From IMG/VR virus record IMGVR_UViG_3300034069_002177, positions 128,001-192,000 of that record: a stretch of DNA of 64,000 nt; one strand, 5' to 3'. The DNA comes from a virus (Duplodnaviria > Caudoviricetes). Positions 171 through 64,000 of the stretch are shown here, piece by piece (position 1 is the first letter of the stretch; each line of letters opens with the position of its first letter). The notes beneath the pieces are model-generated. The model was not told where the DNA came from and did not search any database. It saw nothing but the letters and a program-made list of their open reading frames with translations. Position numbers and translations under genes: made by a program.

Positions 171-629
171 ATGTCTAACGCTATCAACGCTTTAGACGTT
201 CCTGTATCTCCCAATCTCGTTTACTTTTCCTCCGTGTCAGAGAACACCAAAAGGTTCGTTGACAAACTAGGAATTGAAGCAGCACGCATCCCTCTGACCA
301 GAAATGAAGCACCACTAATCGTGGATGCTCCTTATGTCCTGGTCGTCCCTACCTATGGTGGGGAAGTAAATCCAGAGACGGGCAAGATTGATAACGCTGT
401 TCCGAAACAAGTCATCAAGTTCCTCAATGAGGAAAAGAACAGAGGACTGATTCGTGGCGTCATCTCAGCAGGAAACAGAAACTTCGGTGAAGCCTACTGT
501 GCAGCAGGCAGCATCATTGGCGGTAAGTGCAAGGTACCCGTACTTTACCGTTTTGAACTAATGGGTACTATCGACGATGTAGAGCAAGTCCAAGAAGGGT
601 TAAAAGAATTTTGGCAAACACAGCAGTAG
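171..629 (+). CDS. nrdI: Class Ib ribonucleotide reductase flavodoxin NrdI
   Basis: [45 protein letters not shown]; RBS GGAG before ATG 171. Confidence 0.95.
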
Positions 630-2830
630 ACAGTAAGAACGACGGAGCTTCATTCAAGAGAACGCAAGTAGATATTGCGGATATTGACGAGCGGGCAGAA
701 GAGATCGCTCGCGTGACGGAGGGCTTGGATTACCACGCCATCAACGCGATGCTCAATCTCTATGACAAGGACGGCAAGATTCAGTTCGACATGGACAAGG
801 TGGCAGTTAAACGCTACTTCCTTGACAATGTGAACAAGAACACGGTCTTCTTCCACGATCTTCGCGAGAAGATCGATTATCTAATCGAGAACGAGTATTA
901 CGAGGCGGCAGTCATCGAGCAGTATGATTTCTCCTTCGTGAAGGGTCTGTTCAAGCAGGCTTACGCACACAAGTTCCGTTTCCCCACCTTCTTGGGTGCG
1001 CTCAAGTATTACACCTCCTACACCCTGAAGACGTTCGAGGGCGACAAGTTCCTAGAGCGTTTCGAAGACCGAGTTTGTGTCACCGCTCTCTACCTCGCAC
1101 GCGGCGACGAGAAGCTTGCTTCCGCACTTGTTGACGAGATTATCGGCGGACGATTCCAGCCTGCAACCCCCACCTTCTTGAATGCTGGTAAGGCTCAGCG
1201 CGGTGAACTCGTATCGTGCTTCCTTCTTCGCATCGAAGACAACATGGAGTCCATCAGCCGCGCCATTACGTCCTCACTTCAGCTTTCCAAGCGCGGCGGT
1301 GGTGTTGCCCTTAATCTTTCGAACCTTCGTGAGACCGGTGCGCCCATCAAGAAGATCGCTAACCAGTCGAGTGGTCTCATCCCCGTCATGAAGATGCTCG
1401 AAGACGCATTCTCCTACGCCAACCAGCTTGGTGCTCGTCAGGGTGCAGGTGCCGTCTACCTCAATGTTCACCACCCTGACATTCTGCGCTTCCTCGACAC
1501 CAAGCGTGAAAACGCCGACGAGAAGATCCGAATCAAGACCCTTTCACTCGGAGTTGTCATTCCCGACATCACTTTCGAGCTTGCAAAGAAGGGTGAAGAC
1601 ATGTACCTCTTCTCGCCCTACGATGTCGAGCGCGTCTACGGCATACCTTTCGGTGATATCTCCATCAGTGAGAAGTACGACGAAATGGTGGATAACTCAC
1701 ACATCAAGAAGTACAAGATCAATGCTCGTGAGCTTTTCCAGACCCTCGCTGAGCTTCAGTTCGAGTCCGGTTACCCGTACGTTATGTTCGAAGACACCGT
1801 GAACCGTGCCAACCCCGTCAAGGGTCGCATCAACATGTCCAACCTTTGTTCTGAGATCCTTCAGGTCAACACGCCTACCACGTACAACGCTGATGGCAGC
1901 TACGACGTAACGGGTAAGGATATTTCTTGCAACCTCGGTTCGTTGAACATCGCTATGGCGATGGACTCGCCCGACTTCGCAAAGACCATCGAGACTTCCG
2001 TTCGTGCACTCAGCGCTGTTTCGGACATGAGCGACATCGGTTCCGTACCCTCCATCGAGTACGGAAACCAGTCATCTCACGCCATTGGTCTCGGTCAGAT
2101 GAACCTTCACGGTTACCTCGCTCGCGAGCGTATCTACTACGGTTCTGAAGAAGGTATTGACTTCACCAACATCTACTTCTACACCGTTGCTTATCACGCT
2201 ATCCGCGCGTCCAACATCATCGCCAAGGAGACCGGCGAGAAGTTCGGTGGCTTCGAGGACTCGAAGTACGCTACTGGTGAATACTTCACCAAGTACATCG
2301 AAACTGAGTGGAAGCCCGCCACGGCTCACGTTGCAGAACTGTTCGCTACTTCTGGTATTCAGATTCCTACCCAGGAAGACTGGAAGAAGCTTTCGAAGTC
2401 TGTTCAGAAGCACGGTATCTACAACCAGAACCTCCAGGCTGTACCGCCTACTGGTTCCATCTCATACATCAACAACGCAACCGCATCGATTCACCCCATT
2501 GCGGCTCCCATCGAAATTCGTAAGGAGGGTAAGCTCGGTCGCGTCTACTTCCCCGCTCCCCACATGACGAATGATAATGTCGAGTTCTACCAGGATGCTT
2601 ACGAAATCGGCTACGAGAAGATCGTTGACACCTACGCAGCAGCAACCCAGCACGTCGATCAGGGTCTCTCGCTTACCTTGTTCTTCATGGATACTGCTAC
2701 AACACGTGACATCAACAAGGCTCAGATTTACGCATGGAAAAAGGGCATCAAGACCCTTTATTACATCCGTCTTCGCCAGCTTGCGCTAGAAGGCACTGAG
2801 GTTGACGGTTGCGTTTCCTGCACCCTCTAA
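611..2830 (+). CDS. nrdE: Class Ib ribonucleoside-diphosphate reductase alpha subunit
   Basis: [42 protein letters not shown]-terminal TLYYIR and CVSC; no intein. Confidence 0.97.
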
Positions 2831-2844
2831 TCTAGCAACAAAAT

Positions 2845-2899
2845 CGAGAGCGCCTGCACTCCCAAAGTGGTTGTGTAGGCGCTCTCGTGACTGTAGGAT
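2845..2899 (+). promoter_or_regulatory. Inverted repeat after nrdE overlapping a candidate internal nrdF promoter
   Basis: GAGAGCGCCT(GCAC)...(GTGT)AGGCGCTCTC 2846-2886; TTGTGT(2871)-17-TAGGAT(2894). Confidence 0.5.
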
Positions 2900-2949
2900 A
2901 CCCCTACTCTCAAAACACAAACCAAGAGACAAGAAACAAGGAGAACACT

Positions 2950-61780: not shown

Positions 61781-61815
61781 GGAACCCCCTCGTGTTGTAC
61801 TTACGAGGGGGTTCC
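61781..61815 (+). terminator. Hairpin terminator after ssb
   Basis: 13-bp IR GGAACCCCCTCGT/ACGAGGGGGTTCC. Confidence 0.75.
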
Positions 61816-61827
61816 GTCGTTACGCTA

Positions 61828-61856
61828 TTGATTTTTCACCCGAAGCACCCTACAAT
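61828..61856 (+). promoter_or_regulatory. sigmaA promoter TTGATT-17-TACAAT, near-leaderless sbcC transcript
   Basis: ATG lies 9 nt after the -10; no SD. Confidence 0.6.
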
Positions 61857-61865
61857 GGACCAACC

Positions 61866-64000
61866 ATGACGAAATTCCTAACGCTAAAGCTAACCAACTT
61901 CCTTAGCTACAAAACCCTCGATATCAACCTCGACGACATCGCATATGCTTCCGTCGTGGGTGAAAACGGTTCGGGTAAATCCACTATTCCTCAGGGAATC
62001 GCATGGCTTCTCTACGGTGCTAGTAGATTCGGCAACAACAAAGATTCCGTTGTGAACGATTCTGCGAAGACCGCGTCGGGCATTCTTACGCTTCTGGACA
62101 AGGATGGTCAGAAGTGGAAAATCGAACGTAGCTGGACGACCGGAAAAGGCGGCGGTGGCGGACTTGCGTTATTCTACGAGGACACGACAGAAGATGACCC
62201 GTGGCAGCAGTTCGGCGGTAAGCTGAAGGAAAGTGCTCAGACACAAATAAACCTCATTATTGGTCTGACACGCGATGCGTTTTACTCGCTTGTCATCATG
62301 GATCAAAGCAAATATCCCGGTGGCACCGCATTCACCGCGAGTGAGTCCAACAAGCGACGAGAAATTCTCACTGGTCTTGTTCCCGAATTAGCAATTTGGA
62401 AAGACCTCGAAATGGCTACTCGGGCGAATCTACGCGAGGCGAACAAAGACTACGATGCTGATCAAGCGAAAATCGATCAGAACATCGAGCAGGTTAGAAA
62501 GTCACAAGAACGCGAAAGCTCAATCAAAATCATCCTTGAAGAGCTTGACGCTGACTCAATTACCGCCGAGCAAAAAGCGGCTGAGAAGAAAGTCTCAGAA
62601 CTGAATCGGGCTATCGGTGCTGCAAGTGCTGGCGAGGTGGGCGCTATCCAGTCAAAGATTGATTCGGCAGAAGCTCAGCACCGCCTCGCTCTTAATGAGT
62701 TGAACTCCAAGGCTGACAAAATCGATAACCAGCTTGCCGATAGCTCAGACTTCAGCAAGAGAATCAGTGCGCTCAAATCTAAGAAGTCGGCATTCGAGGA
62801 AACTATCGCGGATATCATCGCGGGTGAAGACGACCTCGTATCTTCAATTAACGAGACCAAGAGCATCATCTCTGAAGAGATCGAAGTAGTGGACCGCATT
62901 GCACCTAAAATCGAGTCGGTCAACCGGAGAATCACCGAAGCGCGTAGTAAAAAGCGTGATATTGACGAACAGCTTGATGCGCTCGGTGACGCTCATGGGG
63001 ATGGTGTTTGCTGGGTTTGTGGTACGGAACTTTCGGAAGAGAAGCACGCCAACATCGTTACCAAAGCTGTAAAAGAAAGAGACGAAGCGAACGAAACCAT
63101 TGAAGAACTTTCCGAAGAACTAGATATTCTCAAGCGGAAGCTTAGCGACGCCAACAAGGAAATCCAGTCACAAAACGCGGCGCTCGTCAGGCAGAATAAT
63201 GAGGCGGCGCAGAACGAAAGAGACAAGAAAAACGCGGCTGTTGATATCGAATCAACCGAAGATGAAATCGATGAGCTAACCGCGAAGATCCTATCCGAAG
63301 CGGAAGAAAAGAAGCTTGATGCTGAACTCAAAGCAATCGATAAGGACATCGCCAAGCGTGAAAATGAGTTCGAGAAAGTCACCCTCAAGGTTCTTCGTGA
63401 GCAGTTGAATTCTGTCAAAAACGACAACAACACCGATGAATTGCGCCGTCAACTTGACGCGGTAGAAGATGTCTTGGAAGAGATTCGTTTTCGCAAAACT
63501 AAGCTAGAGCGCAACCTTTCTTCGCTGGAAGAGGCAGAGCGGAACACTGCTGAACTCAACAAGCAGAACAAGCGAATGAACCGCGAAGCGTTAGAGAAAA
63601 AGCAGCATATCGACCGTCTCTCCAAGCTTGTACATGCCACAAGCCCGAAGGGCATTCCGTCGATTCTTCTCGATTCAATTCTGGCTGCAATCGAAGATGA
63701 GCAGAACAGAATTCTTTCGTCGCTTTCTGGAAGCAATCAGATGACTGTCGAGTTCACACAAGAACGTGAAAATAAGGGCGAAGGTAGCAAGGAAGTTCTC
63801 GACATCATTGTTCACACGTCGGACGGAACAAGCAGGCTATACGAATCTTTCTCGTTCGGTGAGAGGGTGCGTCTTTCTATCAGTAACCTGTTCGCCATGA
63901 TCAAGGTTTTCAATGAGCGCAGTGGTGGAGTGGTCAGCACATTGTTCCTTGATGAGCCACTTGGACCGTTGGACAAGAACAAGATTCCTGCGTTCATCGA
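61866..64000 (+). CDS. sbcC: SbcC/Rad50 SMC-like ATPase (runs off window end; absent from ORF track)
   Basis: Translated by hand: LTNFLSY, GENGSGKST, coiled coil, zinc hook CWVC, FSFGE, LFLDEPLGPLD. Confidence 0.9.
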   Translation, partial: MTKFLTLKLTNFLSYKTLDINLDDIAYASVVGENGSGKSTIPQGIAWLLYGASRFGNNKDSVVNDSAKTASGILTLLDKDGQKWKIERSWTTGKGGGGGLALFYEDTTEDDPWQQFGGKLKESAQTQINLIIGLTRDAFYSLVIMDQSKYPGGTAFTASESNKRREILTGLVPELAIWKDLEMATRANLREANKDYDADQAKIDQNIEQVRKSQERESSIKIILEELDADSITAEQKAAEKKVSELNRAIGAASAGEVGAIQSKIDSAEAQHRLALNELNSKADKIDNQLADSSDFSKRISALKSKKSAFEETIADIIAGEDDLVSSINETKSIISEEIEVVDRIAPKIESVNRRITEARSKKRDIDEQLDALGDAHGDGVCWVCGTELSEEKHANIVTKAVKERDEANETIEELSEELDILKRKLSDANKEIQSQNAALVRQNNEAAQNERDKKNAAVDIESTEDEIDELTAKILSEAEEKKLDAELKAIDKDIAKRENEFEKVTLKVLREQLNSVKNDNNTDELRRQLDAVEDVLEEIRFRKTKLERNLSSLEEAERNTAELNKQNKRMNREALEKKQHIDRLSKLVHATSPKGIPSILLDSILAAIEDEQNRILSSLSGSNQMTVEFTQERENKGEGSKEVLDIIVHTSDGTSRLYESFSFGERVRLSISNLFAMIKVFNERSGGVVSTLFLDEPLGPLDKNKIPAFI

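Follow-up and report, generated by a model that had tools for sequence, protein, structure and literature searches.

The DNA analyzed here is a stretch of 64,000 nucleotides (the window), positions 128001-192000 of the single 202,737-bp contig IMGVR_UViG_3300034069_002177 (G000), which originates from a plant metagenome and is held in the IMG/VR virus database. We consider it likely that the window was mistakenly filed among viruses and belongs to the backbone of a giant conjugative megaplasmid whose host is an actinobacterium. Its core is a block of genes in which candidate components of a type IV secretion system (T4SS) are interleaved with replisome genes; the arrangement recurs in metagenomic relatives and in a second IMG/VR record of 321,819 bp (G003). 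An earlier note, made from the sequence alone, had proposed either a conjugative giant replicon or a phage-plasmid hybrid. The former proposal is supported by a VirB4-type ATPase, a coupling-like ATPase, and a MOB_C-type relaxase-like protein, as well as by a backbone common to megaplasmids of cultured actinobacteria; the latter found no support in our searches for phage genes. Giant conjugative plasmid-like elements with their own DNA polymerase III (Pol III) are a known kind, and what is notable here is the extended replisome set, its conserved interleaving with transfer genes, and the misfiling as a provirus. The host signals are actinobacterial, namely, a WhiB-like regulator and nearest plasmid relatives in the Micrococcales. 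Coordinates refer to the window unless prefixed with G000, and Pfam scans covered 45 window open reading frames (ORFs).

Replication genes within a conserved transfer block

The block spans positions 14354-44962 and consists of 19 genes on one strand, with all gaps at or below 112 bp and several overlaps. Two lipoprotein genes are followed by those for a TcpC-like protein, VirB4, a ParA-like protein, small membrane proteins, and a polytopic protein, then by dnaX, the coupling ATPase, the relaxase-like protein, a DnaC-like protein, and dnaE. After the block come dnaB, a SNF2 helicase, an FtsK-like ATPase, sbcCD, and dinG. The transfer and replication genes are listed here (aa, amino acids; TM, transmembrane).

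14354-15869, plus strand: two genes for predicted lipoproteins, which open the transfer block (hydrophobic N-terminal segment, then Cys; no family match)
16992-18305, plus strand: 437-aa single-pass membrane protein, candidate VirB8/TcpC-like (TM at 60-78)
18395-21157, plus strand: VirB4-type ATPase (Pfam AAA_10, 47.6 bits versus a cutoff of 27.5)
21244-23511, plus strand: 755-aa ParA/MinD/TadZ-like protein (PHROG ParA-like, E 2e-4)
23612-24686, plus strand: two small 2-TM proteins (111 and 208 aa), candidate VirB2/VirB3-like by topology
24690-28583, plus strand: 1297-aa polytopic protein with 8 TM segments, candidate VirB6/TrbL-like channel component
28647-30380, plus strand: dnaX, clamp-loader tau/gamma (Pfam DNA_pol3_delta2, E 4e-32)
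31637-34402, plus strand: 921-aa VirD4/VirB4/HerA-class ATPase, membrane anchored, candidate coupling protein (3 TM segments; no Pfam hit)
34383-35636, plus strand: 417-aa Replic_Relax protein of winged helix-turn-helix (wHTH) plus PD-(D/E)XK type, candidate MOB_C relaxase
35650-38628, plus strand: 684-aa and 296-aa backbone proteins with no assigned role (homologues in the same order in G003)
38583-39308, plus strand: DnaC/IstB-like loader ATPase (Pfam IstB_IS21, E 3e-8; conserved in G003)
After the DnaC-like gene, to 40735, plus strand: 473-aa AAA_22 protein (weak AAA_22 match; conserved in G003)
41033-44962, plus strand: dnaE, Pol III alpha of DnaE1 type, 1309 aa (Pfam PHP, DNA_pol3_alpha, finger, HHH_6)
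45041-46678, minus strand: dnaB replicative helicase (Pfam DnaB_C, E 1e-39, and DnaB)
49617-52709, plus strand: FtsK/SpoIIIE-family membrane ATPase of 1030 aa, TcpA/TraB/EccC-like (Pfam FtsK_SpoIIIE, E 2e-16; 5 TM segments)

Most gene names given in the earlier note proved sound, with Pfam confirming nrdIEF, ligA, dnaX, the DnaC-like gene, dnaE, dnaB, SNF2, sbcCD, dinG, and the VirB4-type ATPase. Its VirD4-like and relaxase-like genes are supported by structure prediction, and its ssb and VirB6 remain leads.

Several features suggest that the genes of the block may be coexpressed. Between 14000 and 33900, there is one strong terminator-like hairpin (16945-16984, just before the TcpC-like gene), and matches to a σ70-like promoter are depleted in this region (4, versus 17 ± 4.4 in shuffles). 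The window has an even GC content of 50 to 51%.

The earlier note had remarked that dnaX lies within the transfer cluster, and the same position was found in relatives. The order TcpC-like, VirB4, ParA-like, 2-TM, 2-TM, polytopic, DnaX is kept in the called-gene tables of four of them (L010, L011, L056, and L057), and a fifth (L055) has the same order as far as the polytopic protein, where its locus ends; both small 2-TM genes are positionally conserved in all five. VirB4 identity among the metagenomic relatives with conserved order ranges from 41 to 90%. In G003, BLAST recovered genes g175 to g194 of G000 in the same order at 22 to 40% identity, in a colinear run of the TcpC-like protein, VirB4, the ParA-like and polytopic proteins, DnaX, a 379-aa protein, the coupling ATPase, the relaxase-like protein, the 684-aa and 296-aa proteins, the DnaC-like protein, DnaE, DnaB, SNF2, and the FtsK-like ATPase; DinG, SbcC, and GyrBA are also shared. 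Because dnaX occupies the same position in L010, L011, L056, L057, and G003, its placement inside the transfer block is, to judge from gene order, a family trait and not an accident of one contig. The conservation of dnaX and dnaE inside a transfer operon represents an unusual regulatory arrangement, and our literature search found no paper on a replisome embedded in a transfer operon.

Some VirB4 homologues are 1227 to 1371 aa long and match the query over about half its length, including the one at G003:183201-187043, and one long homologue carries Hom_end/LAGLIDADG Pfam domains; inteins thus probably interrupt VirB4 in several relatives. More distant VirB4 relatives (22 to 25% identity) occur in metagenome-assembled genomes (MAGs) of soil Acidimicrobiales and other Actinomycetota, some on contigs of 118 to 592 kb.

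Candidate components of the transfer apparatus

In the VirB4-type ATPase, Walker A (GRPGAGKT) and Walker B are intact, as are the Walker motifs of the FtsK-like, DnaX, and DnaC-like proteins. VirB4 homologues fall into 29 clusters, almost all of unnamed metagenome proteins. Searched against PDB, the VirB4 profile matched the Thermoanaerobacter pseudethanolicus VirB4 (4ag5) and the Sulfolobus turreted icosahedral virus (STIV) B204 packaging ATPase equally weakly, and tblastn of VirB4 against phages returned nothing.

The 921-aa ATPase also has intact Walker A (GAPNSGKT) and Walker B motifs. The best solved matches of its predicted structure are R388 TrwK/VirB4, followed by Cag-beta and TrwB, and its matches among predicted structures include TraD/TraG coupling proteins as well as HerA/DUF87. 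Used as a tblastn query, it hit genes on megaplasmids of Arthrobacter, Curtobacterium, Pseudarthrobacter, and Euzebya; their name in the Prokaryotic Genome Annotation Pipeline (PGAP) annotation is [quoted passage not shown] We regard it as a candidate VirD4-class coupling ATPase.

The adjacent 417-aa protein is a candidate MOB_C relaxase. Its AlphaFold model (predicted local distance difference test [pLDDT], 83) combines winged-helix and restriction endonuclease-like domains, and many of its AFDB matches, down to E 6e-9, are named Replication-relaxation; Foldseek against PDB gave no match at E <= 0.001, the weaker ones being Card1/Can2/FokI-type nucleases and MarR wHTH domains. In CONJscan, PF13814 (Replic_Relax) is the MobC superfamily of relaxases, whose partners are coupling proteins of VirD4 type (PMC5357655). 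The protein A0A7V9VP92 is a natural fusion of the homologues of these two neighboring genes, since its N-terminal 728 residues align to the 921-aa protein and its residues 848-1234 to the 417-aa protein. A profile search places 45 clusters (formed at 50% identity) in the relaxase-like family at E <= 1e-30, a number that rises to 238 at E <= 1e-10; the 10 representatives looked up carry no informative protein name, and some lie on contigs of up to 374 kb.

The other T4SS assignments are leads from topology and language-model neighbors. For the 437-aa protein, 84 of 100 neighbors belong to the TpcC set (top score, 0.90), and in relatives its gene is invariably directly 5' of the VirB4 gene. Among the clusters neighboring the 1297-aa protein are some in which 13% of members carry TrbL and 35% carry TrbL_3. 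The neighbors of the 755-aa protein are CbiA/AAA_31/ParA clusters (0.93), and a canonical Walker A motif was looked for in it and not found. The small 2-TM candidates gave a single pooled Pfam T4SS_pilin match (E 0.049), a hint at most, and the 684-aa and 296-aa proteins gave a weak HNH PHROG match alone and no PDB match. The FtsK-like protein, 31% identical along its full length in G003, matches the NCBIfam models FtsK, EccC, and TraB, all far below their cutoffs; likewise, NCBIfam gave only far subthreshold matches for ten backbone proteins. A pooled Pfam scan of 48 backbone orthologues recovered neither TpcC nor TrbL, and profile searches of PDB sequences with the coupling ATPase and the relaxase-like, TcpC-like, and polytopic proteins yielded nothing usable.

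Related megaplasmids in cultured actinobacteria

In PLSDB, VirB4, the coupling ATPase, and the relaxase-like protein all match the same Curtobacterium megaplasmids. One of them, pS16 of Curtobacterium sp. MCSS17_016 (NZ_CP126255.1), is a circular plasmid of 545,759 bp whose relaxase-like gene lies directly 3' of the coupling-protein gene. A tblastn search of the G000 ORFs against the whole of pS16 gave 45 hits, of which 5 fall on the tRNA array through tRNA similarity, leaving about 40 common proteins. These include NrdI, NrdE, and NrdF (49, 76, and 72% identity), NAMPT (53%), RtcB (68%), UvrD (44%), and DnaE (33%), together with LigA, SbcD, SbcC, DinG, VirB4, the coupling ATPase, the relaxase-like protein, two T2SSE and one T2SSF pilus genes, phosphoribosyl pyrophosphate (PRPP) synthase, and a CCA-adding enzyme. 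ARAGORN predicts 37 tRNA genes and a transfer-messenger RNA (tmRNA) on pS16. G000 has 64 tRNA genes and a tmRNA; the window itself holds no tRNA by ARAGORN and no Rfam family. G000 also encodes two T2SSE ATPases and one T2SSF platform protein, a CCA-adding or poly(A) polymerase, NAMPT, a UvrD helicase, PRPP synthase, thymidylate synthase (ThyA), gyrase B and A, RtcB, dUTPase, methyltransferases, RNase H, and an antirestriction protein.

Plasmids of Arthrobacter caoxuetaonis (375 kb) and Euzebya pacifica (572 kb) carry homologues of both the coupling protein and dnaE, and the circular plasmids of cultured strains with common backbone genes measure 0.37 to 0.61 Mb. The relationship is nonetheless distant: the backbone proteins of pS16 and G000 are only 22 to 37% identical, GC content is 67% in pS16 versus 51% in G000, and VirB4 of pS16 lies 170 kb from the coupling/relaxase pair, whereas all three form one block in G000. 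With G000 queries, no dnaX, dnaB, or FtsK-like homologue was found on pS16, and tblastn with dnaX also had no hit on the Arthrobacter or Euzebya plasmid. A megablast search with 24 kb of the window had no hits in PLSDB or INPHARED.

The uncultured family is thereby tied to sequenced but undescribed megaplasmids of cultured plant-associated actinobacteria; our literature search found no paper on Curtobacterium- or Arthrobacter-type megaplasmids. Given this tie to plasmids of cultured strains, the biology of the family is testable at the bench, for example, with Curtobacterium pS16.

Some features of these plasmids were noted in passing. The region 479970-492024 of pS16 stands out for its tRNA/tmRNA set, the predicted tag of the tmRNA being odd, and flagellar genes (flgK, flgL, fliW, and flagellin) lie near its VirB4 homologue. 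The dnaE homologues of the Curtobacterium and Arthrobacter megaplasmids (W01:463958-466519 and W02:239575-245465) are in open frames of about 1500 to 1600 aa, and the alignment to the Arthrobacter one is broken into several pieces, suggestive of inteins or of a gene duplication.

G000 as a fragment of a larger element

G000 ends at gene edges, starting on an ATG and ending on a stop codon, and no terminal repeats were found in its 202,737 bp. A Logan contig is identical to its first 5,627 bases and then extends outward by about 19 kb; the first 9.6 kb past the start of G000 is without any match inside G000. These 19 kb hold MoxR/VWA/DUF58, VKOR, and GmrSD_C genes, with most ORFs unannotated and no housekeeping genes. 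The cluster with an identical relaxase-like protein gives a contig of 654,127 bp, and the contigs of relatives measure 412,594, 494,976, and 805,269 bp. Based on the Logan extension and on these contigs, G000 is a piece excised from a much longer contig, probably of about 654 kb, and does not represent a closed genome. The element as a whole exceeds 220 kb, its size probably being near 0.65 Mb. A search of sequencing runs listed no RNA run with the sequence; food metagenomes with a small share of it were among those listed.

Replication genes

The replisome parts present are Pol III alpha, tau/gamma, a beta-clamp-like protein, DnaB, its loader, ligase, and gyrase. The beta-clamp-like ORF (G000:192874-193920; phrog_947, E 1e-19), together with gyrBA, lies just downstream of the window. 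The Pfam model of the clamp N-domain (DNA_pol3_beta) was not found in G000.

As the earlier note had advised, DnaE was compared with chromosomal copies. A DnaE homologue is present in 150 of 151 sampled Actinomycetota genomes (a tally that takes in the unpublished genomes G009, G056, G096, and G128), and the dnaE product of G000 is at most 45% identical to DnaE1 of those 150. The 32 closest chromosomal DnaE sequences share 44 to 99% identity with each other, compared with 36 to 44.5% to G000 and 34 to 39% to G003. In a DnaE2-rooted FastTree phylogeny, built from tblastn-guided frames (row L095 coming from the unpublished G096), G000 and G003 form a supported clade with long branches that falls outside a group of actinobacterial DnaE1, one Streptomyces phage, and three plasmid copies; this phylogeny falls short of a careful maximum-likelihood analysis, and long-branch effects are possible. 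The low identity to chromosomal DnaE1 and the separate long-branch clade indicate that, as far as sequence comparison goes, dnaE was not recently copied from a host gene but represents an old lineage of its own.

Points against a conjugative megaplasmid and alternative explanations

Several points weigh against reading the window as part of a conjugative megaplasmid. IMG/VR files G000 under provirus, with a CheckV value of 96%, and the extrachromosomal state, circularity, and size of the element are taken from its relatives, G000 being a fragment. No oriT was identified, transfer is a prediction from gene content, and MOB-suite types all related PLSDB megaplasmids as nonmobilizable. The 417-aa protein matches Pfam Replic_Relax at E 4e-4 with 20.9 bits, under the cutoff of 25.3, and PD-(D/E)XK wHTH proteins are also possible regulators or replication proteins (PMC3424549). 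The model of the 921-aa ATPase is mediocre (pLDDT 68), and its fold cannot tell VirD4 from VirB4 or HerA. The 437-aa protein has no Pfam or PDB sequence match, and Pfam and PDB profile searches with the 1297-aa protein were likewise without a match; the VirB8/TcpC-like and VirB6-like identities of these two are leads only. Lastly, Pfam found neither a primase (DNAG_N, Zn_ribbon_DnaG) nor DNA_pol3_delta in G000, ParB was not found there, and no initiator was identified, although DnaA and Rep were not searched for. The missing replisome parts may lie on the uncaptured portion of the element, given that G003 does encode DnaG and that G000 is a fragment. As a consequence of these gaps, the claim of the earlier note that the element replicates largely independently of its host is plausible in view of the parts that are present, but “near-autonomous” is overstated and unproven.

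One alternative is that the window belongs to an integrative and conjugative element (ICE) or another island in an actinobacterial chromosome, in which case the contigs of 412 to 805 kb would derive from chromosomes and genuine host flanks would underlie the provirus call. The provirus class, the lengths of those four contigs, a PHROG excisionase match within the first 64 kb, and the occurrence of distant VirB4 relatives on chromosomal-size contigs of Acidimicrobiales MAGs are all compatible with it. However, no tyrosine integrase (PF00589) was found in G000 or G003, serine recombinases not having been searched for; the 19 kb beyond the start of G000 are without housekeeping genes, and RpoB was not found. 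Moreover, the circular plasmids with the common backbone are of the same size class as the contigs in question. We therefore consider a chromosomal location unlikely.

Equally improbable to us is a giant plasmid whose T4SS-like genes export proteins or serve replication or segregation, with the Replic_Relax protein as initiator or regulator and the 921-aa protein as a HerA-type partner. Replic_Relax is named for replication and relaxation and was predicted to be a helix-turn-helix regulator (PMC3424549), it is the universal marker of the Inocles (PMC12340149; see below), as would be expected of a replication gene, and no other initiator was found; the HerA/DUF87 matches of the 921-aa model and the MOB-suite calls point in the same direction. 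On the other hand, VirB4, a VirD4-class ATPase, and a MOB_C protein, the latter two adjacent and once fused, constitute an accepted conjugation signature (PMC5357655), and DNA transfer is also consistent with the presence of the FtsK-like translocase and the pilus genes. Nor does protein export exclude conjugation.

The searches for phage genes bear on a third explanation, a jumbo phage or phage-plasmid that uses its VirB4/FtsK-class ATPases for packaging or entry and whose tRNA array, NAMPT, nucleotide metabolism, and replisome are the usual kit. Six-frame Pfam searches of G000 at E <= 1 found no TerL_ATPase (PF03354) and no Terminase_6N (PF03237), and PF03354 is also absent from the 322-kb G003, which is rated 100% complete. 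The HK97 capsid (PF05065) is absent from both records, where divergent capsids would need fold searches of all ORFs, and the portal PF04860 is absent from G000, other portal families not having been searched for. PHROG scans of 116 ORFs gave no structural/virion or terminase family among the matches listed; for 56 of these ORFs the matches are the best 25 of 71 families, so that a weak structural match could be hidden, which is a further point against our reading. None of the 28 proteins common to G000 and G003 is a recognizable virion protein.

In favor of a phage are the virus record itself with its CheckV value, the 64 tRNAs and tmRNA with the CCA-adding enzyme, NAMPT, ThyA, PRPP synthase, and RtcB, a dnaE product 37% identical to a Streptomyces phage DnaE, several language-model neighbor clusters labeled Uroviricota, and the weak STIV B204 match of the VirB4 profile. 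The Uroviricota labels, however, may stem from similarly misfiled records, and the same accessory kit is present on the Curtobacterium circular plasmid and, in part, on the conjugative pMP7017 (PMC10832533). Since the kit that gives the record its jumbo phage-like look also occurs on pS16, which is circular and comes from a cultured strain, a giant plasmid is the best reading of the element, and we regard a phage or phage-plasmid as very improbable.

Proposed mode of transfer and replication

If the window does represent a conjugative megaplasmid, the relaxase-like protein would nick the plasmid at an oriT, and the coupling ATPase would pass the DNA to a VirB4-powered channel. The channel would belong to a T4SS of Gram-positive type, built from the lipoproteins, the TcpC/VirB8-like protein, VirB4, the ParA/TadZ-like protein, the small membrane proteins, and the polytopic VirB6-like candidate. 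The element’s own Pol III alpha, clamp loader, clamp, helicase and loader, ligase, gyrase, and ribonucleotide reductase could do most of the copying of the replicon, and this replisome may also handle strand replacement after transfer. With a replisome of its own, the plasmid would rely less on its varied hosts and burden them less. The arrangement prompts one to ask how a plasmid of half a megabase is copied while conjugation proceeds and once it is over.

Comparison with known systems

By published description, the closest analogue is the Inocles, giant plasmid-like extrachromosomal elements of oral Streptococcus that form circles of hundreds of kilobases (Nat Commun 2025, PMC12340149). Like the present element, they are hundreds of kilobases in size, were discovered in metagenomes, and encode a Replic_Relax (PF13814) protein (their universal marker InoC), VirB4 and VirD4 (in all members), Pol III alpha, gyrase, and DinG; they also conserve an exonuclease (PMC12340149). 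Inocle hosts, however, are Bacillota, while the signals here are actinobacterial, and Inocles are defined by InoC identity of >70% and a Streptococcus host, whereas the shared trait here is a Replic_Relax protein of similar size. In the Inocle paper, Pol III, gyrase, and DinG are interpreted as serving stress repair rather than as a replisome, and no dnaX is reported in a transfer operon (PMC12340149). Our findings suggest that these genes on giant plasmid-like elements such as Inocles form a plasmid replisome rather than stress-repair cargo.

Among actinobacteria, the 190-kb pMP7017 of Bifidobacterium breve is a conjugative megaplasmid that also has a tRNA array and a tmRNA and carries type I-E CRISPR-Cas (PMC10832533). 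It differs in replicating via RepB, and its paper does not mention DNA polymerase (0 times) (PMC10832533); in PLSDB searches, none of its transfer genes resembled the VirB4 described here at the BLAST level.

Jumbo actinophages and DnaE-encoding Streptomyces phages share with the element tRNA arrays, tmRNA, nucleotide metabolism, and a DnaE-type polymerase, the phage DnaE that is 37% identical being that of Streptomyces phage TagePhighter. Unlike these phages, the element has T4SS and relaxase-like genes, and virion or packaging genes were not found in the searches of G000 and G003. Among the records of virus databases, very large ones that carry tRNA arrays and replisome genes can be conjugative megaplasmids, which affects counts of “huge phages” and proviruses.

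The Gram-positive T4SSs of the mating-pair formation (MPF) types FATA and FA, such as Tcp of pCW3, resemble the transfer genes in having an AAA_10 VirB4, an FtsK/SpoIIIE ATPase with N-terminal TM segments, a single-pass TcpC-like candidate directly upstream of VirB4, and a large polytopic VirB6/TcpH-like candidate. In contrast to Tcp, homology to TcpC and TcpH is not demonstrable by profile searches, no peptidoglycan hydrolase was recognized, and the element has a MOB_C-type relaxase candidate, a second VirD4-class ATPase, and replication genes embedded in the operon.

It is conceivable, although on balance doubtful, that this family, the Curtobacterium/Arthrobacter/Euzebya plasmids, and perhaps the Inocles form a deep lineage of giant Gram-positive conjugative plasmids with an ancestral MOB_C relaxase, VirD4/VirB4, and a private Pol III replisome, and that a linked “transfer-coupled replisome,” expressed as one program, lets a half-megabase plasmid establish itself in distant hosts.

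Other genes of the window

The remaining annotated genes lie on both sides of the transfer block.

159-629, 611-2830, and 2887-3909, plus strand: nrdI, nrdE, and nrdF, class Ib ribonucleotide reductase operon (Pfam Flavodoxin_NdrI, Ribonuc_red_lgC/RNR_N, and Ribonuc_red_sm)
3966-4700, minus strand: dATP/dGTP diphosphohydrolase-like gene, MazG type (Pfam dGTP_diPhyd_N, E 2e-37)
5972-8744, plus strand: DUF2201 metallopeptidase/VWA-like protein and MoxR-type AAA ATPase (Pfam)
12233-14206, minus strand: LigA, NAD-dependent DNA ligase (Pfam DNA_ligase_aden, OB, BRCT)
46614-48845, plus strand: SNF2-family helicase (Pfam SNF2-rel_dom, Helicase_C; conserved in G003)
52741-53937, plus strand: sbcD-like nuclease (Pfam Metallophos; 31% identity to the pS16 gene)
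56259-56942, plus strand: WhiB-like regulator (Pfam Whib, E 2e-5)
57375-59768, plus strand: DinG-type helicase (Pfam Helicase_C_2, E 6e-38), with a small ORF between it and the WhiB-like gene
61123-61764, plus strand: possible SSB-like protein, unconfirmed
61866-64000 and beyond the window end, plus strand: sbcC-like SMC ATPase (Pfam AAA_23, SMC_N; full ORF of 759 aa in G000)

Two of these neighbors accompany the transfer block elsewhere: the DUF2201/VWA and MoxR pair is also upstream of it in L010, L011, and L055, and ligA is kept next to it in L010, L011, and L056. The SSB-like candidate had one Pfam SSB match (E 0.0094), in a pooled scan that does not indicate the matching member, and a PDB search with it gave no match. 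The MazG-type gene adjoins nrdIEF and may shape the deoxynucleoside triphosphate pool of the element. The ORF at 4781-5899 has a V-D-K-N-G-R motif in its N terminus, the remainder being DUF7007. Three unannotated proteins (9792-10355, 11121-11543, and 59835-60980) have similar Cys-rich N termini of the K-C-x2-C ... D-P-S-G-L-C-x2-H type, which are possibly a common zinc-ribbon module.

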